Origin: a virus
Lineage: Duplodnaviria; Caudoviricetes
IMG/VR virus record: IMGVR_UViG_3300021387_000147
Direction: 5' to 3' (one strand)
DNA: 64,000 nucleotides
The notes under the pieces are model-generated. The model had not been told where the DNA came from and made no database searches. It saw only the letters and a list, made by a program, of their open reading frames with translations. This document shows positions 14,197 to 60,529 of this stretch, one piece after another. Every line of letters starts with the position of its first letter. The first letter of the stretch is position 1. The position numbers and the translations under genes are program-made.

Positions 14197-14453
14197 AGAA
14201 TGTTATTCATTCTATTTAATTTGGTGAGCAACCAAAAAATCATGATACCGTCATCCAGAGGTATAACAACAGGCTATACATGGACCGATGAGCCAATCCC
14301 TAATACATCGCTTGGGTTGCTAATCATCTTTGCCTAAGTTCATCAAGTTTCTTAAAACTTGCAAATCAATTATTCTTCGGAGATGAATAACAGACTCATT
14401 GTTCGTTTATCAGTCATCAATATAAGCATATTATTGCTGTCAGTATCATTATA

Positions 14454-14526
14454 GGCCGATTATCCAGATTTGAACTGGATCCACTTCAGTCACAGTGAAG
14501 GATGCTACCCTTACACCATAATCAGC
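14454..14526 (-). tRNA. trnH: tRNA-His(GTG)
   Basis: cloverleaf; CTTCA-CTGTGAC-TGAAG; C73. Confidence 0.85.
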
Positions 14527-14537
14527 ATAAAATTCAA

Positions 14538-14665
14538 CAAGATACAGGTTTTTTACGTCTCTTAAACGCTTTAACCGTAGTTAACTTGTAGGATTTGAAC
14601 CTACTAACATTGCTTTTCAATTAATGTATTTACCGTTTGATTGAGTTGCTGTTTAACTGTATCTT
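14538..14665 (-). ncRNA. CAGCAA-wrapper RNA copy A (T-arm cargo)
   Basis: AAGATACAG..CAGCAA ... GTAGG-TTCAAAT-CCTAC ... CTGTATCTTG. Confidence 0.7.
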
Positions 14666-14673
14666 AAACTTTG

Positions 14674-14780
14674 CAAGATTCTGTTTTTCGTGACCTCTTG
14701 AACTTAATCAAGCGCTCTCAAATCTGAGCTACAGTTCCAATAATTGGCGGAATAGACAAATGAATTGCTGTCAGAATCTT
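14674..14780 (-). ncRNA. CAGCAA-wrapper RNA copy B (D arm + anticodon-arm cargo)
   Basis: AAGATTCTGACAGCAA ... TAGCTCAGATTTGAGAGC CTTGA-TTAAGT-TCAAG ... CAGAATCTTG. Confidence 0.7.
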
Positions 14781-14784
14781 TTAG

Positions 14785-14856
14785 CAGGAGTACTAGGATT
14801 CGAACCCAGACCGTGCAGTTTTGGAGACTCACATGCTGCCATAACACTTTACTCCT
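14785..14856 (-). tRNA. trnW: tRNA-Trp(CCA)
   Basis: cloverleaf; loop CTCCAAA. Confidence 0.85.
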
Positions 14857-15087
14857 AAATTGATTATATGATTTTGCCTTCTCTAACTATAGTATAATCG
14901 CTACGAATCTCATTTTTCTGCGCATATCAGAGATTATAGACTTTTGCACATCGACTTTTTTAGCTCACGATGATTGCATGAAGATCAAATGCTTCCGAAC
15001 CGTCAACTGTTTTAACTAGCCATAAACTATCAGGCCTCAGCCATGGGGAGTATCGCAGTCCCTTTCTTTTGACGAAGAAGCGGTTAG

Positions 15088-15158
15088 TTGCCGATACTCG
15101 GGTCGAACGAATACTAAGGGCTTCAGAGACCCCTGTGCTACCGCTACACCAATCGGCA
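15088..15158 (-). tRNA. trnQ: tRNA-Gln(CTG)
   Basis: GGGGT-CTCTGAA-GCCCT. Confidence 0.85.
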
Positions 15159-15162
15159 ATAA

Positions 15163-15294
15163 CAAGATATGTTTTTTGCTTTTTACGTGCTCTACCAATT
15201 GAGCTACAAATGAGGAACTTCCTCACTCGATGGGATTCGAACCCATAACACCGGTCTTAACAGGACATTGCGTTAGAGTTGCTGCACATATCTT
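15163..15294 (-). ncRNA. CAGCAA-wrapper RNA copy C (permuted tRNA mimic, GTT anticodon loop)
   Basis: order: GTC-CTGTTAA-GAC, T arm ATGGG-TTCGAAT-CCCAT, loop-closed acceptor hairpin, D arm TAGCTCAATTGGTAGAGC. Confidence 0.8.
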
Positions 15295-15308
15295 TAAACG
15301 CTACCTTA

Positions 15309-15427
15309 CTAGATGTTTTTACTGCTTCGGAACTTGGACTCGAACCAAGAATCTTCTCTTTAAATAAGAGGTGCTTTAACCTATTAAGCTATTCTGAAAA
15401 AAGTATTTCAGTTGCTGTTAACATCTA
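15309..15427 (-). ncRNA. CAGCAA-wrapper RNA copy D (complete tRNA-Lys-like cargo)
   Basis: TAGATGTTAACAGCAA ... normal-order cloverleaf, loop TATTTAA ... AACATCTAG. Confidence 0.75.
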
Positions 15428-15438
15428 AAAGATTTTAG

Positions 15439-15511
15439 AGCCCCATGTCAGGATCGAACTGACGACTACAGTTTGGAAGACTATCATGTTAAGCCACTAC
15501 ACTAATGGGAC
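15439..15511 (-). tRNA. trnG: tRNA-Gly(TCC)
   Basis: ATAGT-CTTCCAA-ACTGT; U73. Confidence 0.85.
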
Positions 15512-15518
15512 TTAGTAG

Positions 15519-15589
15519 ATCCCCGTGCGGGAATTGAACCCGCGCCTCAACCTTGGCAAGGTCGCTTGCTACCACTACAACAACGGGAA
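15519..15589 (-). tRNA. trnG: tRNA-Gly(GCC)
   Basis: CGACC-TTGCCAA-GGTTG. Confidence 0.85.
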
Positions 15590-15872
15590 TTAAAAAAATA
15601 TCTCTTACGGTGATTTAACGTTATCCTTACTCCCATAAGGAACAATCAAGAGATTTTGATTGGAATGTTCTCCCTAGCATCGAACATACAAGCTAACTAT
15701 CTTCACATGACTTATATCTTTCATCACTACAGGATAGCGTTTTTCCGATTTGCAACTGACCATCAATCAGTCATTTGCCATGTAGCATATAAATCAACTA
15801 CGTCGCTTCTAGTAATCAACTTATAAACACTTTATCGGGAAGATATTATATTTATAACTTTAAAATTTTTAG

Positions 15873-15960
15873 AGGAGGTGGTAGGATTCGAACCTACGGA
15901 GGGCTCATCACCCTCAACGGTTTTCAAGACCGTCACCATAATCCACTCGGTCACACCTCC
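15873..15960 (-). tRNA. trnS: tRNA-Ser(TGA)
   Basis: ACGGT-CTTGAAA-ACCGT, long variable arm. Confidence 0.9.
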
Positions 15961-15964
15961 ATAA

Positions 15965-16084
15965 CAAGATACGTTTTTCTTTGTAGCCTTATCCTACTAT
16001 TAGATGACGCCAACTACGTTGACGGTCGGACTTGCACCGACATACAGGCTTGGGGTCAAGAATATCAATTGCTGAATGTATCTT
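15965..16084 (-). ncRNA. CAGCAA-wrapper RNA copy E (YrlA-like permuted tRNA mimic)
   Basis: AGCCT / GTCGG-TGCAAGT-CCGAC / CGTCAAC-GTA-GTTGGCG / D arm / AGGCT. Confidence 0.8.
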
Positions 16085-16092
16085 AAAATTTA

Positions 16093-16222
16093 AGACCAAC
16101 GGTGGACTCGAACCACACCGGTATAGCAGTTGCGACAGCTACCCATTTAACTAGTGAAACACCACGTTTCTCGACTTCATATAAATTCGCAACTTTCTAG
16201 GAAGTCTATCACTACGCTGGCC
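16093..16222 (-). ncRNA. tRNA-ended structured RNA with kissing loops
   Basis: GGCCAGCG/CGTTGGTC stem, GTGG-TTCGAGT-CCAC T arm, complementary loops AGTTGCGA and TCGCAACT. Confidence 0.7.
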
Positions 16223-16236
16223 AAATATATTTATAG

Positions 16237-16310
16237 TGCTCCATACTGGGGTCGAACCAGTGTCAAAACCTTCGTAGGGTCTTATGCTTATTCCATTACA
16301 CCAACGGAGC
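16237..16310 (-). tRNA. trnR: tRNA-Arg(ACG)
   Basis: AGACC-CTACGAA-GGTTT. Confidence 0.85.
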
Positions 16311-16388
16311 AAACTGACAGTTTAGAATCATGTGATCATCTTATCGTGAACTGTCACTACGACCTAATGCCAATTAGGATTTTTATAG

Positions 16389-16472
16389 TGGCCAGGGAGG
16401 GATTCGAACCCTCACGCCCTTTCGGGCCAATGCTTCTAAGGCACTGTTGTCTACCAGTTTCAGCACCTGGCC
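16389..16472 (-). tRNA. trnL: tRNA-Leu(TAG)
   Basis: AGTGC-CTTAGAA-GCATT, long variable arm. Confidence 0.9.
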
Positions 16473-16480
16473 ATAATCTA

Positions 16481-16563
16481 CGGAGAGTGCAGGACTCGAA
16501 CCTACAAGGCCCGAGGGCCGGCACATTAGTAGTGTGCTGCCTTACCAATTAGGCTAACTCTCC
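16481..16563 (-). tRNA. trnS: tRNA-Ser(ACT)
   Basis: GGAGAGT acceptor, GCACA-CTACTAA-TGTGC, long variable arm, G73. Confidence 0.8.
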
Positions 16564-16578
16564 ACAAAGAGAAATTAT

Positions 16579-16712
16579 CAAGATACGTTTTCGCATCGAT
16601 CGCGTCTACCAATTTCGCCATTTCCCGATGTACCGGGAAAGATGGATTCGAACCACCACATCACTTAAGATAATCGTTTTCATAGCATTAAGTATATTGC
16701 TGTATGTATCTT
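16579..16712 (-). ncRNA. CAGCAA-wrapper RNA copy F (permuted Leu-type tRNA mimic)
   Basis: variable arm, GGTGG-TTCGAAT-CCATC, TTTCCCG-GTACAT-CGGGAAA, D arm TGGCGAAATTGGTAGACGC. Confidence 0.8.
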
Positions 16713-16840
16713 AAACACTCACCGGATTCCCGATTCTCCACCGGTCAAGATGTCTATCAACTGCCCATTCTATCGGTCGACTTCTTATAGGGTACAAACT
16801 CCATCTTGGTCATTTTATTGATCGTCTATGACTTTCTTAG

Positions 16841-16924
16841 AGCTGAGAGAGGGACTCGAACCCACGAAGAGTTTCCTCCACAGTTTTGCAGACTGTGTCC
16901 TTTGCCGCTCGGATTCACCTCAGC
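16841..16924 (-). tRNA. trnC: tRNA-Cys(GCA) with long variable arm
   Basis: ACAGT-CTGCAAA-ACTGT, GAG-GAAA-CTC extra arm, U73. Confidence 0.8.
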
Positions 16925-17006
16925 ATATAAATGAAGATTTATATTGAATAATTTAATGAGTTAAACTCTGGCGACGTACCTCCAACTCAATATAAATCTT
17001 GTTTAA

Positions 17007-17076
17007 TAACGGGGGTAGGTAACGCTCCTACGGAGGCAGGCTTATGAGACCCGCTGGAATACTTATTCGCCCCGCT
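17007..17076 (-). tRNA. atypical tRNA with CAT anticodon
   Basis: CGGGT-CTCATAA-GCCTG; shrunken D arm; T loop AGCGTTA. Confidence 0.55.
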
Positions 17077-17170
17077 CGTCTTTATATTTATAACAAACAC
17101 GTCCTCTGTTTTAAGTTTTTAACTATTACGCACAGAGTCAGAAGCGCAACAGCAATTGAATGCTGAATAG

Positions 17171-17245
17171 TCCCGGAGATAGGATTTGAACCTATGACGC
17201 ACAGATTATGATTCTGTCGCTCTGACCAAACTGAGCTACACCGGA
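17171..17245 (-). tRNA. tRNA-Met/Ile2(CAT)
   Basis: ACAGA-ATCATAA-TCTGT. Confidence 0.8.
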
Positions 17246-17259
17246 ATAATCTGTTTTAG

Positions 17260-17333
17260 TGCCTCCCCTGCGTGCCGCCCGCAGCTTCTCGGATTTTCAG
17301 TCCGGTCCAATCACTGGATTTGGATTGAGAGGC
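17260..17333 (-). tRNA. trnF: atypical tRNA-Phe(GAA)
   Basis: CGGA-CTGAAAA-TCCG; T loop GGCGGCA. Confidence 0.65.
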
Positions 17334-17383
17334 AAACTAGATTTTCTTTTGATTAGTGGAGAAAATTGTAAAGAACCAATTCG

Positions 17384-17456
17384 TGGACCCGAAGGGAATC
17401 GAACCCTTCACACTCGGCTTGCAAAGCCAAATCGCCTCCTTGGATCATGCGAGCCC
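17384..17456 (-). tRNA. trnA: tRNA-Ala(TGC)
   Basis: TTGGC-TTTGCAA-GCCGA; G3:U70. Confidence 0.8.
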
Positions 17457-17461
17457 ATAAA

Positions 17462-17523
17462 CTAGATACTTTTAGCGTTCAATTATAACCAATAATGTGC
17501 TAATAAGTTGCTGTATGTATCTA
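17462..17523 (-). ncRNA. CAGCAA-wrapper RNA copy G (minimal hairpin cargo)
   Basis: TAGATACATACAGCAA ... ATTA-TTGGTTA-TAAT ... GTATCTAG. Confidence 0.7.
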
Positions 17524-17536
17524 AAACTTTTAGTAG

Positions 17537-17614
17537 TCCAGCAGGTTGGACTCGAACCAACACATACCACTGTATCAGAGTGGCTGACAGATACCAATCG
17601 TCTATTGCCGCTGG
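17537..17614 (-). tRNA. trnI: tRNA-Ile(GAT), enlarged D region
   Basis: CCACT-CTGATAC-AGTGG. Confidence 0.75.
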
Positions 17615-17622
17615 ATAAAGTA

Positions 17623-17655
17623 GACGTATAATAATGTGATCAGCATTATATACGT
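17623..17655. repeat. perfect 13-bp hairpin
   Basis: GACGTATATAATG-7nt-CATTATATACGTC. Confidence 0.7.
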
Positions 17656-17922
17656 CAATGATCTATTTTACTATTTTTACTTAAACCCTGTAAGTCAACA
17701 GCCAAAAATAGTTAAGGCGGGAACCAGTTTTTTTAACGACACGAAAACTTCTTCTCATAAAAACAAACGTCCATAATATACATTAGTTTAGACTCATCAT
17801 CCTTAATATGGAATTAGTAGCATCGGAGTGTGTCCCATTTTTATCGGAAAAACTTGAACCATCAAAACGACTAGCATGCATGTTATAGAGTCCTCGCATA
17901 GCAGAGCTATCTCTTTGGGTAG

Positions 17923-17997
17923 TTCTCGGAGAAGGATTCGAACCTTCGACTTCCAACTTGTAAGGATGGCACTCTGAACCAACTGAGTTACCCGAGA
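17923..17997 (-). tRNA. trnV: tRNA-Val(TAC)
   Basis: loop CTTACAA, canonical D and T arms. Confidence 0.85.
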
Positions 17998-18007
17998 ATA
18001 AATTTAT

Positions 18008-18077
18008 CAAGATACATCTTTTATTCTGGAATCATTTTGTGTGATAGAAATAAAATTTGAGTTGCTGTGTGTATCTT
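18008..18077 (-). ncRNA. CAGCAA-wrapper RNA copy H (minimal)
   Basis: AAGATACACACAGCAA ... ATCA-CACAAAA-TGAT ... TGTATCTTG. Confidence 0.7.
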
Positions 18078-18085
18078 ATCTTTAG

Positions 18086-18158
18086 TACCCCTCCCGGGAT
18101 TCGAACCCGGATTATCGCATAGAAAGTGCGATGACCTAAACCGTTAGTCGAAAGGGGC
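18086..18158 (-). tRNA. trnE: tRNA-Glu(TTC)
   Basis: TCGCA-CTTTCTA-TGCGA. Confidence 0.85.
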
Positions 18159-18407
18159 AAAATTATCCATTGCTTCACGTCTGCCAATCTCTGTTATTGA
18201 AGCTCTTTGTTAAGGTGCCTTTCCACTGTCCTACCGAACTATGCAGTAGCGCTTTCAGCAAATTATTCTCGTCAGAAACTTAACTTCCCGGACTTAAATC
18301 TAAAATTACTTAATCGATGTTTTCATTTTAAATTCAATGGATAGTAAATGCGCAGGAAAATGACCGACCATGACCTTTCCGGAATATCACTATTGTATCA
18401 TTCTCCA

Positions 18408-18518
18408 ACAAATCATATATTCTTGTCGGGATATGAATGGACTCGAACCATCGACCTTTCTCTACTGAACGCTCTAACCAACTGAGCTACACACCCCTTA
18501 GTCCAATATATGATTTGT
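18408..18518 (-). ncRNA. tRNA body with truncated anticodon arm inside a 14-bp duplex
   Basis: ACAAATCATATATT/AATATATGATTTGT flanking intact D and T arms; anticodon arm reduced to TTC-AGTAGA-GAA. Confidence 0.7.
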
Positions 18519-18524
18519 AATTAG

Positions 18525-18598
18525 CGACACCGGAGGGATTCGAACCCTCGAAAGCCGGTTAGACAGACCGGTGGAATAGACCACTATCCGACGGTGCC
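18525..18598 (-). tRNA. trnD: tRNA-Asp(GTC)
   Basis: CCGGT-CTGTCTA-ACCGG; G73. Confidence 0.85.
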
Positions 18599-18739
18599 AT
18601 AAAAGAAATTAGTTATTGTAGACTACCTGAATTCATCCTATATGATAGCATTACTACAAATTAAAGAGCATTGAATAAGTACCGCGTCCTTAACATTAAG
18701 CGCCCTTGTCCGGCGGATGCGCTGCTCACCTAATTTTAG

Positions 18740-18815
18740 TAGCGGGTCTGGGAGTCGGACCCAGTATTGCGAAGCTTATGAGGCTTGCGTGATAAATCCG
18801 TTTCACTCACCCGCG
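18740..18815 (-). tRNA. trnM: tRNA-Met(CAT), initiator-like
   Basis: C1xU72 mismatch, CGCGGG acceptor, loop CTCATAA; lacks three G-C anticodon pairs. Confidence 0.7.
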
Positions 18816-18826
18816 ATAAAAGCATT

Positions 18827-18948
18827 TAATTCATTGGAAACCCCTTGTTTCTACTTGGCTGTAGGTATATTGAACTTTAACAAACAAAATTTATAAAGCT
18901 ATACCTACCGCCGGGATTTGAACCCAATTTTACGATAACAATGAATTA
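18827..18948 (-). ncRNA. T-arm-containing structured RNA
   Basis: TAATTCATTG/CAATGAATTA closing stem, GGG-TTCAAAT-CCC, GTAGGTATA/TATACCTAC stem. Confidence 0.6.
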
Positions 18949-18952
18949 TTAG

Positions 18953-19025
18953 CGCTGGAGGAGGGATCCGAACCCCCGACCGGTGCATTACAGGTGCACT
19001 GCTCTACCAACTGAGCTACTCCAGC
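18953..19025 (-). tRNA. trnT: tRNA-Thr(TGT)
   Basis: GTGCA-CCTGTAA-TGCAC. Confidence 0.8.
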
Positions 19026-19109
19026 TAAATGACCTCTTTGATACAGTCTAGAGTCGAGGTCAGTCCTCTAGTAAAGACCTAGTTTGTTTTGGCTCTAGGT
19101 CACCATTCG

Positions 19110-19182
19110 CTGTCCTTCCTGGACTCGAACCAGAGACTACTCGATTAACAGTCGAGTGTTCTACCAACTGAACTAAAGGACA
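19110..19182 (-). tRNA. trnN: tRNA-Asn(GTT)
   Basis: CTCGA-CTGTTAA-TCGAG. Confidence 0.9.
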
Positions 19183-19189
19183 ATAATAG

Positions 19190-19261
19190 TGGACCCATAG
19201 AGAATCGAACTCTACCATCAGTCGTGCAAGGACCAATCGCCTCCTTGGTACATGTGAGCCC
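19190..19261 (-). tRNA. trnA: tRNA-Ala(TGC), second copy
   Basis: TGGTC-CTTGCAC-GACTG; G3:U70. Confidence 0.8.
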
Positions 19262-19349
19262 AAATAATGTAATTGAAAATTAAATTGAGAATTCTTTAGC
19301 AAGTGAATTTCGAATATCTTGTGTTACGCCGGAATTTTTTAACAGGTTA

Positions 19350-19381
19350 AATATAATAATTATTAAAGAACTTGTAAACCC
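19350..19381 (-). promoter_or_regulatory. internal promoter of the RNA array
   Basis: GGGTTTACA-17-TATATT. Confidence 0.75.
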
Positions 19382-19454
19382 TGTTTATTAAAAAATCTTC
19401 CAATTTTTTTGTTGTTATATTATTTATATAACGAACATTTCAAATTTTGCAGAC

Positions 19455-19610
19455 TTAGTAGTCATAATTATTTGTTTTCTTTTCTTTAACTACTTTGATT
19501 CCTGCCTGTTTAGCAAAAGACTTTGCCAAGTTTCTCATTTGCTTCCAACGCTGTTCCTTTTCAGCCTGGATTTCTTCTTTTGTTTTCTTCACCTTAGTAT
19601 TCTTCTTCAT
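19455..19610 (-). CDS. small basic protein (51 aa) inside the tRNA array
   Basis: MKKNTKVKKTKEEIQAEKEQRWKQMRNLAKSFAKQAGIKVVKEKKTNNYDY; AAGGA RBS; not in ORF track. Confidence 0.6.
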   Translation of the reverse strand: MKKNTKVKKTKEEIQAEKEQRWKQMRNLAKSFAKQAGIKVVKEKKTNNYDY

Positions 19611-19634
19611 AAACAATTCCTTTTGTTAAACTTT

Positions 19635-19772
19635 CTAGATGCCTTTATTATCGTCCGCATGCTTTAACCACTTGCATACCTCTCCACGTTATGGAGAGTG
19701 AAGGATTCGAACCTCCGAAGTCGTGAGACCAGCGGTTTACATTGATAAATTTTGTATTGCTGAGTGCATCTT
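19635..19772 (-). ncRNA. CAGCAA-wrapper RNA copy I (permuted Tyr-type tRNA mimic)
   Basis: GTAAA-CCGC, variable arm GTC-TCAC-GAC, GGAGG-TTCGAAT-CCTTC, CTCTCCA-TAACG-TGGAGAG, D arm, GCGG. Confidence 0.8.
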
Positions 19773-19775
19773 TAG

Positions 19776-19853
19776 TCCACGGAGTAGGACTTGAACCTAC
19801 ACATAGGACCTTATAAGAGCCCCTGCCTGATACCAATCGGCTATTGTCCGTGG
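19776..19853 (-). tRNA. trnI: tRNA-Ile(TAT)
   Basis: GGGCT-CTTATAA-GGTCC; same enlarged D region as Ile(GAT). Confidence 0.75.
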
Positions 19854-19921
19854 ATAAAAATGATTTAATTTATTAACGCAGTTTACTCTGCTCCGAAGGA
19901 ATTGCACCTTCACATCTTTAG

Positions 19922-19992
19922 TTGTCCATGATGGAGTCGGACCACCGCCAAAGGATTCAAAGTCCCCTATACTACCGCTATACGAATGGACA
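19922..19992 (-). tRNA. trnQ: tRNA-Gln(TTG)
   Basis: GGGGA-CTTTGAA-TCCTT. Confidence 0.85.
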
Positions 19993-20295
19993 ATAAACAT
20001 CACGGCTCATCAACATAGTTGACATTTATAGTGCTGCCGAATATTTTTACACTTTACGATCTATGGTATCGATGGCCTTACATAGATTAACCTTCCAGTA
20101 AGAAAACCAGAGGTGGATTTGGAGACAAAATAAAACTTTAAACTATCTATATCACCCTAACTATTCTTTCATGGATTCGTCAGTTCCAATATTGGGTGTA
20201 ACCCGTCCAATATTACACTATTCACCAGACTTACCTTAGCTCTTTATGACTTAAGGTCGGTATTACTCAAATAGTCTACAGATAATTTAATTTAG

Positions 20296-20369
20296 TACTC
20301 CGAGAAGGGGTCGAACCTTCAACCTACGCTTTAGAAGAGCGTTGCTCTAATCCATTGAGCTATCGGAGC
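20296..20369 (-). tRNA. trnR: tRNA-Arg(TCT)
   Basis: ACGCT-CTTCTAA-AGCGT. Confidence 0.9.
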
Positions 20370-20375
20370 ATATTA

Positions 20376-20444
20376 CAAGATAGGTTTTTCTGCGTGTTAT
20401 TCCCAAAATGAATTTGCATAAGTATTTGTTGCTGTATCTATCTT
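20376..20444 (-). ncRNA. CAGCAA-wrapper RNA copy J (minimal)
   Basis: AAGATAGATACAGCAA ... ATTC-ATTTTGG-GAAT ... CTATCTTG. Confidence 0.7.
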
Positions 20445-20447
20445 TAG

Positions 20448-20521
20448 TAGTCCCATTTGGCGTCGAACCAAATTTTCCAGGTTGAAAACCTAGCGTCCTA
20501 ACCATCGTAGACGATGGGACC
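20448..20521 (-). tRNA. trnE: tRNA-Glu(TTC), second copy
   Basis: CTAGG-TTTTCAA-CCTGG. Confidence 0.85.
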
Positions 20522-20742
20522 AAAATGACTTTTTGTCACGTACTAAGTCTAAAAGCGCCTCGCAGAACCATTGTGTTGCCAGTCATTGTCGCGGTAATCT
20601 GGAGCTCGTAGAAAAGAAACCACTTCAGCCGCGATTCGATTTCTTCTCATTCACCATGCTACCGATTTAGGATGTCGGCATCTTCCGATATTACGCAGAC
20701 GAGGTTTGTACCTTTTACCTCCAAGCATGACTTTGTTTGTAG

Positions 20743-20815
20743 TGCCCCAGGAAGGACTCGAACCTTCAACCCACGGATTAAGAGTCCGCTGCGCTACCAA
20801 TTGCGCCACTGGGGC
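20743..20815 (-). tRNA. trnK: tRNA-Lys(CTT)
   Basis: GCGGA-CTCTTAA-TCCGT. Confidence 0.9.
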
Positions 20816-20940
20816 ATAAAAGTACCGACAATAAATCCATGTAAGCTTCCATTTCATTATTGCCTTGCTAGAAGTTCAACTGCATCGTGCGTATAGGATT
20901 CAAACCTTAATTGAACCTCTAACTAAAACTTTATTTGTAG

Positions 20941-21015
20941 TCGGAGTGGTAGGATTCGAACCTACGACTTCTTGAATCCAGATCAAGCACGCTGACCAGA
21001 CTGCGCTACACTCCG
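20941..21015 (-). tRNA. trnP: tRNA-Pro(TGG), atypical loop
   Basis: CGGAGTG acceptor; CTTGA-TCTGGAT-TCAAG. Confidence 0.75.
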
Positions 21016-21021
21016 ATTTAG

Positions 21022-21105
21022 TGGCCAAGGTGGGACTCGAACCCACACGGCATTACTGCCAAGGGATTTTAAGTCCCCAGTGTCTACCAATTCCACCACA
21101 AGGCC
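21022..21105 (-). tRNA. trnL: tRNA-Leu(TAA)
   Basis: GGGGA-CTTAAAA-TCCCT, long variable arm. Confidence 0.85.
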
Positions 21106-21322
21106 AAAAGAAAAATAATTCATTAACAAGTTAGTGCAGACTGTTTTCGTCCTACTCATCTGCATCCCGGGTGACTTTCGTGCCCTTGTTACATAGGATT
21201 TCATTTATATCACCTCACTCAGGTATAGCCGCCGTTATGCGCAATGACAAGCTGACTATTCAAGTAAGAACTTCTGTTCCTGGCAGGCCAATATGTCCAG
21301 CGAAGCAATGAATTATTTTTAG

Positions 21323-21398
21323 CTGGGAAGACAGGACTCGAACCTGTGAAAACTGGGGCATTAACAGTGCCGTGGCATACCAACTTGCCGACAACCCA
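21323..21398 (-). tRNA. trnN: tRNA-Asn(GTT), second copy
   Basis: GGCA-CTGTTAA-TGCC; acceptor mismatches. Confidence 0.7.
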
Positions 21399-21409
21399 AT
21401 AAATGATAG

Positions 21410-21493
21410 TGCCTGTGGGTGGATTCGAACCACCAAAGCCGAAAGGCACCGGTTTTACAGACCGGGGATGATCTCCAACTCATCAGCACAGGC
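21410..21493 (-). tRNA. trnY: tRNA-Tyr(GTA)
   Basis: CCGGT-CTGTAAA-ACCGG, variable arm. Confidence 0.85.
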
Positions 21494-21720
21494 ATAAAAA
21501 CTTTTGTAGGTTTAGAGAGTTCCTACTTCTCAGTGGGCTACCACCAAAGCATTCAGCCTTTTGAAGTCCTCAACTGTAGAGGGCGTTCCAACTTCTCCAG
21601 AACGAAGGCTGAAAAAGCCGTATGAGGGCAAAAAGCGCCGGCATACAAGATAAAACTTGCAGGAATTATTTTATATGCCTTTCACCGAATGAATATATTG
21701 ACTGCAATCAATATTTAGTG

Positions 21721-21797
21721 TAACCTCTAAGGGGATTCGAACCCACCGTTTCCCGACTCAACGTCGAGCGTCCTAGTCCATGCTAGACGACAGAGCA
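21721..21797 (-). pseudogene. degenerate tRNA (Glu-like body, TTG anticodon)
   Basis: CTCGA-CGTTGAG-TCGGG; imperfect acceptor and T stems. Confidence 0.5.
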
Positions 21798-21813
21798 TTC
21801 GGTTTTTTGTTAG

Positions 21814-21887
21814 TCGGGATAGAAGGATTCGAACCTTCGACCACTCCGCCCCAAACGGAGCGCTCTACCAGACTGAGCTACATCCCG
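21814..21887 (-). tRNA. trnP: tRNA-Pro(TGG)
   Basis: CTCCG-TTTGGGG-CGGAG. Confidence 0.9.
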
Positions 21888-21970
21888 CTGATTTTAGGCT
21901 CTTTCTTCCGCCACTGAGGAAGCGAACTTGGCTGATTGCGGCACACAGTACCTAAACTTTTTAATTTTAA

Positions 21971-22043
21971 TGGGCCAAGCGGGGATCGAACCCACGACTC
22001 CTACATTAAAAGTGTAGTACTCTACCAGCTGAGTTATTGACCC
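21971..22043 (-). tRNA. trnK: tRNA-Lys(TTT)
   Basis: CTACA-CTTTTAA-TGTAG. Confidence 0.9.
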
Positions 22044-22279
22044 AAAACTTCGTCCCTTACTCGAATATATGCATCTACTCTTTCGTGGGCTTGCATCCAT
22101 CTTTTCACTAAGTCAATCGGCTTCGAACCGATCTCTCCGGCATGACTTTTCTGGCCGGTGTTCCAACCCAATTCACTGTTTTCTTAGCAAATCAACTTCA
22201 ACCATTTTTGTTTGACAGAGTTTCATTCTCGCCTCCGCTTTATCTTCCCTATAGCAACGGAGAAAACCATAGCATGTAG

Positions 22280-22361
22280 TCGGTAGGGAGGGACTCGAAC
22301 CCTCACACCTTTCGGTACTGGATTTTGAGTCCAGCGCGTCTACCAATTCCGCCACCTACCG
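22280..22361 (-). tRNA. trnL: tRNA-Leu(CAA)
   Basis: CTGGA-CTCAAAA-TCCAG, variable arm. Confidence 0.9.
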
Positions 22362-22424
22362 ATAATTAATGCTCACCAAATTGTCAATCTTCAACTCAGT
22401 TTCTCGAACCGAATTACAAGAGTA

Positions 22425-23037
22425 AATTTACTAATTTCGATTTCTCTTGTCAACCCCTTTTCTGTAAAACATTCTTTACATTGAGGAGGATTTTTTCATT
22501 GAAAGTTTCACCGTAGTGACTCTTTCAATTTTGACAGGCTAAATATAAGTGATTATTTTCAGCTTGTCAACCCCTGATTTAGTAAAATTTTCTTTACATT
22601 CTCAAAGGCGTTTTCGTTATTTCATTGTCGACCGGACTCGGGCGGTTATTATTCCGTGTACCCGACTTGCATTTTCCTACGTGCGGCACACAGATTTTTT
22701 GCTTTTACAGCCAACCTTCATATTAGACCATTTTATTATCCATCCTTTTAACTACTCTAACAAAAGTGATGCAGTTCTTGTTGTTGTTTTACTGTTTGAG
22801 TGACTGCTCTAACTCATTCAGCTGTTTTATTTTAACAAGTAAAATATACTTAATTATTTGGCTCTTGTAAACCCTGTTTTTTGTAAAACTTTTTTTACAT
22901 TCGCCGTTTTCTTTGTGATTTTTAGCCATCAGCTTCAATCACAGGGTATAATATACCAAAAAAAGAGGGTCTTGGAAACCCTCTTTTCTGTAAATTTTTA
23001 TTTACAATCCTTTATGTTTTGTAAATGAATGTTTACA
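22425..23037 (-). promoter_or_regulatory. four tandem promoters, each with a TGTAAA-N6-TTTACA-type box, driving the RNA array
   Basis: -35 hexamers at 22448, 22565, 22866, 22973, all with 17-bp spacers; boxes at 22463, 22581, 22882, 22989, 23020. Confidence 0.8.
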
Positions 23038-60195: not shown

Positions 60196-60529
60196 TTCTT
60201 CGGTGGTAGGAGCTAGGAGAGAATGAGCCTATCCAGGAAGAATAATTGGATAGGCACAAAGATATACATCACTTCGCTGTATAGGTTTTGCTTATCGGTC
60301 ATTCGAGACTTATATTCATGCTTACGGGTCGGTCATCCTGTACTCCGGCTACATCATGAAATGCTATGGCGGCATACGAATTACTTGCTAGATAATTCTT
60401 CGATACTGTATCGTTATTAGTGACAAGTTTACACTATCTACCTAATCATTTTATGTGCACTTACAGTTTTCATGCAAACGGCTCACCCTCTACCGATAGT
60501 TCCATTGAGTTGGTCTTCGCTCCGAGGAA
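60196..60529 (-). ncRNA. candidate ~330-nt structured RNA
   Basis: nested end pairings TTCCTCGG/CCGAAGAA, GGAACTA/TAGCTCC, AGAGGGTGAGCC/GGCTCATTCTCT; TTTACA-16-TATATT promoter just upstream. Confidence 0.55.

Follow-up and report, generated by a model that had tools for sequence, protein, structure and literature searches.

Clamp-and-CAGCAA RNAs within a phage tRNA operon carry tRNA-like cargo and are probably ligands of a Ro60-like ring protein

What are the ten structured elements that lie among the tRNA genes of a giant gut phage? They occupy the minus strand of a 64,000-nucleotide stretch (the window) of the IMG/VR virus record IMGVR_UViG_3300021387_000147 (Duplodnaviria; Caudoviricetes). 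The window is part of a 141.7-kb contig, with an estimated completeness of 47%, from a giant phage of the sheep/cattle gut, and this contig extends 58 kb past the window end. Each element is bounded by a short terminal stem, here called the clamp, and has the hexamer CAGCAA beside the 5′ strand of that stem; clamp and hexamer together form a constant handle, while the cargo between them varies and resembles tRNA. Ro60 and its Y RNAs are a long-standing puzzle of RNA surveillance and autoimmunity, and the bacterial forms have been linked to tRNA damage and repair. We propose that the ten elements are probably Y-RNA-like ligands of a Ro60-like ring protein of this phage (Pfam DUF2828 with a vWA domain), and that they display tRNA mimics. 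Genome comparisons establish a family of predicted handle RNAs, a two-way genomic link between this family and a protein with a predicted Ro60 fold, and the presence of both components in this phage.

The pattern AGAT-N(3-11)-CAGCAA matches the window 12 times, compared with 2.2 expected matches, and none of 100 shuffled sequences reached 12. Ten of the matches are on the minus strand within the tRNA array (14538-20443), and a stricter descriptor that includes the 3′ sequence ATCT(T/A)G returned precisely these ten, and no others, across the 141.7-kb contig. Each element begins with (T/A)AGAT, two to four variable clamp bases and one to five free bases, followed by CAGCAA and a pyrimidine; the variable cargo, an A-rich stretch, the clamp complement and ATCT(T/A)G complete the 3′ part. 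The clamp comprises 6-8 bp and closes all ten unconstrained minimum-free-energy folds, CAGCAA is invariant in all ten copies, and the clamp pairs change in a compensatory manner (GATAC/GTATC, GATTC/GAATC, GATAT/ATATC, GATGT/ACATC, GATGC/GCATC and GATAG/CTATC). An earlier note, made from the sequence alone, had listed these ten minus-strand copies together with their covarying stem and invariant hexamer; the pattern counts and strict descriptor found the same copies, and the alignment of the ten contains the same pairs. A further "degenerate copy" that it had placed at 14381-14449 does contain CAGCAA, but is not counted here because it lacks a 3′ partner and is missed by the covariance model described below.

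When the hexamer was relaxed to CA[GA]CA[AG] and combined with 6-bp stems, the matches outside the array were chance-like only. A partner strand for CAGCAA was also considered, since AGC can pair with GC(U) of the 3′ A-rich segment in seven of the ten copies; this pairing was dropped because it is weak in AT-rich sequence and because the motif of the Class I RNAs of Dictyostelium, which are discussed below, is reported to be unstructured.

Table 1. Coordinates and composition of the ten handle elements, all with CAGCAA, and of the operon that bears them.
Feature	Coordinates	Strand	Clamp (5′/3′)	Cargo or content	Covariance model (bits)	Placement
Element A	14538..14664	-	AGATACAG/CTGTATCT	T arm (GTAGG-TTCAAAT-CCTAC) and small hairpins	19	
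Element B	14674..14779	-	AGATTCTG/CAGAATCT	D arm and anticodon-like arm (tRNA 5′ half)	24	directly after tRNA-Trp
Element C	15163..15293	-	AGATATGT/ACATATCT	permuted tRNA-Asn-like body: anticodon-like hairpin CUGUUAA, T arm, acceptor closed by loop, D arm		
Element D	15309..15426	-	(T)AGATGTT/AACATCT(A)	whole normal-order tRNA at 15324-15398, anticodon read as UUA		
Element E	15965..16083	-	AAGATAC/GTATCTT	degenerate permuted tRNA-like body: T-like hairpin, closed stem, D-like hairpin	28.3	
Element F	16579..16711	-	AAGATAC/GTATCTT	long hairpin, T arm, closed 7-8 bp acceptor, D arm	32.7	
Element G	17462..17522	-	(T)AGATAC/GTATCT(A)	minimal unit: one small hairpin	44	after tRNA-Ile
Element H	18008..18076	-	AAGATACA/TGTATCTT	minimal unit: nested hairpin, 7-nt loop	41.4	after tRNA-Glu, before tRNA-Val; identical copy in record L178
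Element I	19635..19771	-	AGATGC/GCATCT	permuted tRNA-like body: T arm, closed 7-8 bp acceptor, D arm with GG loop	26	
Element J	20376..20443	-	AAGATAG/CTATCTT	minimal unit: hairpin loop AUUUUGG, UUU in anticodon position	48.6	between tRNA-Glu and tRNA-Arg
tRNA operon	14454..22361	-		30 tRNA genes and the ten elements (ARAGORN, Rfam)		
Promoter-like cassettes of tRNA operon	about 22400-22590 and 19330-19400					

The same handle recurs in many other phages. A first scan of public records used a pattern that was too loose and returned mostly chance matches; those records were reused as controls. An exact scan of IMG/VR with the commonest clamp (AAGATAC, 1-6 nt, CAGCAA, 25-55 nt, GTATCTTG) yielded 71 loci, compared with roughly ten expected by chance from a hand estimate. 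The gap between clamp and CAGCAA was three bases in nearly all 71, though one to six were permitted. A descriptor free of any fixed clamp, which accepted any 7-bp complement, gave 227 hits, compared with 14-38 for seven permuted hexamers, and dozens of further clamps were found (e.g. AAGACAC, AAGGTGC, AAGGGAG, TAGTCGC and AGTGCAC). Members of the family, with clamps of many different sequences, were found in over 50 phage contigs that are unrelated to each other. Tandem arrangements were also observed in AT-rich, giant-virus-like contigs without tRNAs, where at least five 64-nt clamp+CAGCAA units follow one another at L179:2831-3160 (-), and likewise in L127 and L159.

In an alignment of 72 sequences, double-sided changes affect all seven clamp pairs, with 86 compensatory cells compared with 15.9 in shuffles, and none of 500 shuffles was as high. 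The covariance model built from this alignment recovered nine of the ten copies in the window, where it made no other match, and it detected the handle in all 15 complete handle-bearing genomes and in none of 11 complete control genomes. An Rfam search of the array found no family that covers the handle and no characterised family that fully matches an element; the YrlA model, considered below, scored beneath its threshold on element C.

Dispersed copies with inverted ends could also be produced at the DNA level, by elements resembling miniature inverted-repeat transposable elements or by targets of homing endonucleases, in which case the clamp would be a terminal inverted repeat; genes for GIY-YIG, HNH and DUF559 endonucleases often neighbour related loci. 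However, copies within one genome vary by compensatory changes in the repeats and share no common repeat sequence, they are oriented with the tRNAs, and the hexamer is present on a single arm. Neither target-site duplications nor transposase-related interiors were seen, the interiors being tRNA-like. We regard a mobile or recombination element as hardly credible.

Judged by sequence and predicted fold, the variable middle of the handle RNAs imitates tRNA. The imitation may be a whole tRNA, a cloverleaf that is permuted and has its acceptor stem closed as in bacterial YrlA, or just a T arm or anticodon stem-loop. The cloverleaf within element D was called by ARAGORN and scored 52.5 bits with the Rfam tRNA model. 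Its anticodon reads UUA (ochre), and a shifted register gives UUU without U33; an ochre suppressor is implausible as a translating tRNA here, because TAA terminates 70 of the 84 long open reading frames (ORFs) in the contig. Permuted cloverleaves were examined by doubling each cargo, trimming the junction and running ARAGORN. The re-circularised cargo of C gave a junction-spanning tRNA (Asn GTT in 59 trims), as did that of F and that of I, with the permutation breakpoint between tRNA positions 26 and 27 and the natural tRNA ends closed, while the re-circularised cargo of E gave no ARAGORN call. The earlier note had read permuted cloverleaves in C, E, F and I; that description fits C, F and I, and E is a degenerate version. 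It had also recognised the whole tRNA in D, which both programs detect, as well as the tRNA half in B and the T arm in A, all of which stand. Its 7-nt-loop hairpins are present in H and J; in G, the loop has either 5 or 7 nt, depending on the reading.

In element F, the 3′ side of the clamp can be formed by either of two strands. The inner strand (TATCTTAA) closes a short unit at 16665-16714 and the outer strand (GTATCTTG) encloses the tRNA-like part, suggesting either an insertion of cargo behind a short unit or alternative folds of the element.

Imitation of tRNA extends to the cargo of other phages. Hairpins resembling an anticodon arm, defined by a 5-bp stem (at least four inner pairs) and a 7-nt Y-U-NNN-R-N loop, were found in 35 of 110 short cargos, compared with 5.5 ± 2.2 in dinucleotide shuffles. 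The loop of tRNA-Lys(UUU), CUUUUAA, occurs nine times among the 110 short units, where shuffles gave 0.015. Longer units in other phages add a variable loop and T arm, a closed acceptor and a D arm, and some contain a whole tRNA.

Clustering of the ORFs around the elements identified a dominant neighbour at 17 of 56 loci, a protein of about 500 residues with the Pfam domains DUF2828 and DUF7788 (vWA). Of 46 handle-bearing records, 26 contain DUF2828, among them 14 of the 15 that are at least 90% complete, compared with 4 of 47 control records from the loose pattern (two of these four hold true handles) and 1 of 11 complete controls. Handles and gene are also close together: 18 of 21 distinct DUF2828 genes have same-strand handles in the 1.5 kb that precede them. 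The last handle is located 11-55 nt before the start codon in 12 of the 21 and across the start codon in a thirteenth, where the codon falls within a clamp+AAA+CAGCAA unit (L134:7480-7530, -) that is preceded by eight more tandem units, with no tRNA nearby. In the converse comparison, six loci were selected purely for similarity to the DUF2828 protein of the window's phage, described below, and five of them had handles ending 14-84 nt before the ATG. A unit resembling element I also adjoins a DUF2828 gene, in record L140. The link holds in both directions. The proposal of the earlier note, that one protein would bind the constant handle of RNAs bearing varied tRNA mimics in the manner of Ro60 and Y RNAs, is supported by co-occurrence, adjacency and the predicted Ro60 fold described below.

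The phage of the window encodes this protein itself. A 299-kb ENA contig (L200), reached through the last large protein of the window's contig, is 100% identical over 15,312 nt to the end of the window's contig, and it contains, at L200:3288-4808, a DUF2828+DUF7788 gene of 506 residues from the same phage, 62.6 kb beyond the window end. The leader of this gene (L200:3060-3290, +) begins with a promoter cassette. It continues with a canonical unit (AAGATAC, ACA, CAGCAA ... GTATCTT-G) that was outside the training set of the covariance model and scored 39.6 bits, and with a second hairpin, bearing ACAACAA, that ends 20 nt before the DUF2828 ATG. From its sequence, the leader looks like an autoregulatory operator.

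The relationship to Ro60 is visible through fold comparison only, because the DUF2828 sequence profile gave a non-significant result against PDB sequences (Ro60 E 0.37). The fold was taken from an AlphaFold model (mean predicted local distance difference test score 78) of a homologue that is 42% identical to the protein of this phage. In Foldseek, the 12 best PDB matches of this model are all Ro60/TROVE proteins (E 3e-9 to 9e-5, template modelling scores 0.42-0.58, 520-570 columns) and cover its full length; they include the Ro60 of Thermus phage phiLo (9KOP, 9L5Y; best), Xenopus and human Ro60, and Deinococcus Rsr. Profile searches with Pfam TROVE (PF05731) and RtcB found no match in the 141.7-kb contig, as the earlier note had observed for the window, and none for TROVE in 46 related records. 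A candidate for the Ro60-type partner, which it had suggested seeking elsewhere in the genome, is encoded outside the window, namely the DUF2828+vWA protein of predicted Ro60 fold on the identical longer contig. More than 7,000 clusters match this protein, mostly viral, and a homology search returned unnamed metagenomic proteins only (Atlas: viral clusters).

Genes for a T4-type RNA ligase 1 and a KTI12/AAA_33 (plus HD) kinase-phosphatase were observed near DUF2828 at L205:1137-2855 (+), L207:833-1708 (+) and L142:7304-8212 (-); in L205 and L207 these RNA-repair genes are immediately upstream of DUF2828.

Do the elements need a protein partner at all? Each window element is situated 1-20 nt from a tRNA end or from a neighbouring element (n=10). 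tRNA arrays are present in about 50 of the 71 loci, with the element nearly always on the tRNA strand, and 41 of 77 pattern hits elsewhere have a same-strand tRNA within 300 nt. Every tRNA gene of the operon is followed by N73-CTA(A), and none by CCA, so that 3′ ends need remaking after processing, a demanding step. The elements might accordingly be punctuation of the tRNA operon, that is, stable spacer hairpins that guide or protect processing by RNase P, RNase Z or RNase E with no dedicated protein, their cargo being recombination debris. Yet arrays of up to eight or nine units are found without a nearby tRNA directly upstream of DUF2828 (L134, L187 and L189), and the DUF2828 leader of this phage contains handles as well. 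Moreover, a spacer hairpin has no need of an invariant single-stranded hexamer 3 nt from the clamp, and cargo enriched in intact anticodon-arm geometry is unlike debris. We consider punctuation unlikely to account for the elements.

HDV-like ribozymes have been reported in phage tRNA arrays, and each unit could be a small ribozyme of a new type, which would cleave itself, and with it the operon transcript, at the unit's border, with CAGCAA as the catalytic core. The units can be as short as about 40 nt, few of their nucleotides are invariant, and their peripheral domains vary; in tandem arrays they are separated by linkers of 3-6 nt, and their borders are conserved (AG... and ...CU(U/A)G). Searches for known families (HDV-like, hammerhead, twister, twister-sister, pistol and hatchet) at E up to 10 nevertheless returned a single match, to twister-sister inside the cargo of E (18.6 bits, E 4.3). 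A core of one hexamer, for which no second conserved strand or pseudoknot partner was found, also speaks against catalysis, and the link to a Ro60-like protein would be left without explanation. A ribozyme is therefore very improbable.

Several observations weigh against DUF2828 as the partner. The link between protein and RNA is one of guilt by association, from which we infer binding, and the ten elements of this phage are at least 100 kb away from its DUF2828 gene. The Pfam TROVE model is blind to the DUF2828 protein, as would follow from a distant paralogue. The handle motif CAGCAA is unlike GGUCCGA, GNCGAA and CGAA, through which known Y RNAs bind Ro60. The 72 aligned sequences were picked for having a paired clamp, so that "percent paired" is circular among them, and the independent tests are the hexamer control and the covariance-model search. 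Finally, one complete handle-bearing genome (G038) lacks DUF2828, and RNAs of Dictyostelium with the same handle are reported to bind the protein Rnp1A directly (PMC7919456), making another partner conceivable.

The last two points, together with the presence of Ro60 in some bacteria (e.g. Bacteroides thetaiotaomicron in the control set), would agree with RNAs that are real and stable but are held by another factor, such as a host Ro60/Rsr or a protein with an RNA-recognition motif (RRM) like Rnp1A, or that act as naked tRNA decoys, DUF2828 being a mere neighbour. The two-way association given above argues against this, and it spans very different phages, whose hosts cannot all carry Ro60. In addition, the placement of handles at the DUF2828 start (in 12 of 21 genes and in L134) is typical of the operator of an RNA-binding protein. 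A different binder, or none, is an improbable explanation, and the DUF2828 protein is the partner considered in what follows.

The pairing is most likely of a known kind, that of Ro60 and Y RNAs, and no published description of this widespread RNA-protein pairing was found. Searches for published accounts of RNAs with this handle found none except those of the Dictyostelium Class I RNAs, and the published mentions of DUF2828 that were found are unrelated to it.

Among known systems, the overall build is closest to that of YrlA, the RNA partner of Ro60/Rsr in bacteria and mycobacteriophages (Chen et al. 2014, PMC4201824; Rfam RF02553). In both, the two ends of the RNA pair in a terminal stem, a short conserved motif, single-stranded, adjoins the 5′ strand of that stem, and the known or proposed partner is a ring of Ro60 fold with a vWA domain; some YrlA RNAs, too, are phage-encoded. 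Elements C, F and I also share with YrlA the order T arm, loop-closed acceptor stem, D arm, with E a degenerate case; this order is not that of the cargo in A, B, D, G, H and J. The YrlA model matched element C end to end with 35.7 bits (E 5.6e-5 over 8.6 kb), where the gathering threshold is 69, and the score stems from the T arm, closed acceptor and D arm; the other nine elements gave no match at E up to 10. In contrast to YrlA, all ten elements have CAGCAA where YrlA has GNCGAA(N)G, the proposed contact of Rsr (PMC4201824), and no TROVE Ro60 gene neighbours them on the same strand, their candidate partner being the DUF2828 gene 62.6 kb past the window. Their cargo is interchangeable, and many copies contain only an anticodon arm, which is absent from YrlA. 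The genome holds ten copies inside a tRNA operon, distant from the protein gene. Hence three of the four features that define YrlA (score, GNCGAA motif and TROVE neighbour) fail.

Thermus phage phiLo encodes a Ro60 and, upstream of its gene, two Y-like RNAs, Yrl1 and Yrl2 (PMC12135203; PDB 9KOP, 9L5Y). The phage studied here similarly encodes a predicted Ro60-type ring with RNA genes directly upstream, in the form of the two leader handles. The phiLo protein differs in being a recognised Ro60 homologue (by its UniProt annotation, according to PMC12135203), and its RNAs carry CGAA; neither tRNA-mimic cargo nor placement in a tRNA operon is reported in PMC12135203. The vertebrate Y RNAs with Ro60 (PDB 1YVP) likewise have a terminal stem with a motif on its 5′ strand, which binds the exterior of the ring while a variable loop recruits factors. 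Their motif, however, is GGUCCGA in a bulged helix; they are transcribed by pol III, carry a La-binding tail and show no tRNA mimicry.

The handle also resembles that of the dictyostelid Class I RNAs, which are 42-65 nt long, have a covarying short end-to-end stem and a variable remainder, and occur in many copies per genome (PMC7919456). They have been sought with the pattern GTTGRCCTTACAGCAA...GTCAACTG and bear the 11-nt motif CCUUACAGCAA beside the 5′ strand (PMC5054030); they are reported to be unique to Dictyostelia and to be bound directly by the RRM protein Rnp1A (PMC7919456). The minimal units G, H and J (61-69 nt, 7-8 bp clamp) share this build, and the other seven elements are longer through their cargo. 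In Class I RNAs the motif directly follows the 5′ strand and terminates in ACAGCAA; in the phage, CAGCAA is present in all ten elements and preceded by A in seven, and the CCUU part is absent. Unlike the phage units, Class I RNAs start with an invariant G (GUUG...), have their own Dictyostelium upstream sequence element (DUSE) promoters and the 11-nt motif, and have no described tRNA-like cargo, whereas the phage units start with (A/T)AG and form an internal part of a polycistronic tRNA operon. What the window adds to these systems is the richest set of tRNA-derived cargo and a tRNA-operon location remote from the protein gene.

These comparisons are consistent with a model in which the elements are genes of small Y-RNA-like RNAs produced within the phage tRNA operon. 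Host RNase P and RNase Z would excise the flanking tRNAs and leave RNAs of 60-140 nt, their ends clamped by a helix of 6-8 bp. The clamp and the adjoining single-stranded (A)CAGCAA would then form the constant handle, most likely held by the DUF2828+vWA ring protein, as the genomic association suggests, in the way that Ro60 holds the terminal stem and conserved 5′-strand motif of a Y RNA (PMC4201824, PMC12135203). The least certain step is function. The cargo may offer tRNA-like surfaces to tRNA-binding factors, acting perhaps as a decoy for anticodon nucleases, or perhaps tethering the ring protein, together with an exonuclease or repair enzyme, to damaged tRNA. The two handles in the DUF2828 leader suggest co-transcription with the gene and feedback control of its translation. 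The excess of arms of the tRNA-Lys type, the tRNA of element D that is implausible in translation and the RNA ligase and kinase genes beside DUF2828 in some phages point to a conflict over tRNA integrity.

More tentatively, the clamp+CAGCAA RNAs and DUF2828 might constitute a second, mostly virus-borne branch of the Ro60/Y-RNA system, homologous to the amoebal Class I RNAs and directed at tRNA in phages, although we regard this as doubtful. If it were true, the ring would display mimics of anticodon arms or whole tRNAs, chiefly of tRNA-Lys(UUU), that absorb or sense host anticodon nucleases or steer RNA repair. Such a branch would explain both the location in tRNA operons and the T4-type RNA ligase and polynucleotide kinase neighbours in some phages.

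On the protein side, DUF2828, a very large family, looks like a paralogue of Ro60 that has a separate class of RNA ligand. The specific gain from the window is that the variable part of this putative ligand systematically imitates tRNA, from a bare anticodon arm through a permuted cloverleaf to a full tRNA, which provides a testable model for the role of the particle during infection, namely in the conflict over tRNA integrity. It also offers a possible rationale for many of the "non-tRNA" spacers in phage tRNA arrays, as well as a candidate protein partner and origin for the Class I RNAs of Dictyostelium, the question of whose function dates from 2004.

Transcripts of the array may be present in the sheep gut. 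In metatranscriptomes from at least four studies, up to 76% of array words are present and the summed depth of the array exceeds that of flanking genes, data that consist of assembled contigs, possibly with DNA and tRNAs of other organisms, that reveal neither ends nor strands nor levels, and that are not counted as proof of discrete RNAs.

Further structured sequences were observed in the operon. Two tRNA-like bodies that ARAGORN did not call match the Rfam tRNA model, one at 18428-18496 (-) with 47.9 bits and one at 19779-19850 (-) with 27 bits, the latter immediately before element I. Many more of the operon spacers of 75-300 nt appear structured, for example 16093-16222. A lysine-rich ORF of 53 codons with a ribosome-binding site lies in the middle of the tRNA operon, between element I and the promoter cassette (19455-19616, -). 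Elsewhere in the window, the Rfam cow-rumen-2 RNA (RF02947) has a full-length match at 60301-60404 (-), with 98.4 bits against a threshold of 66.

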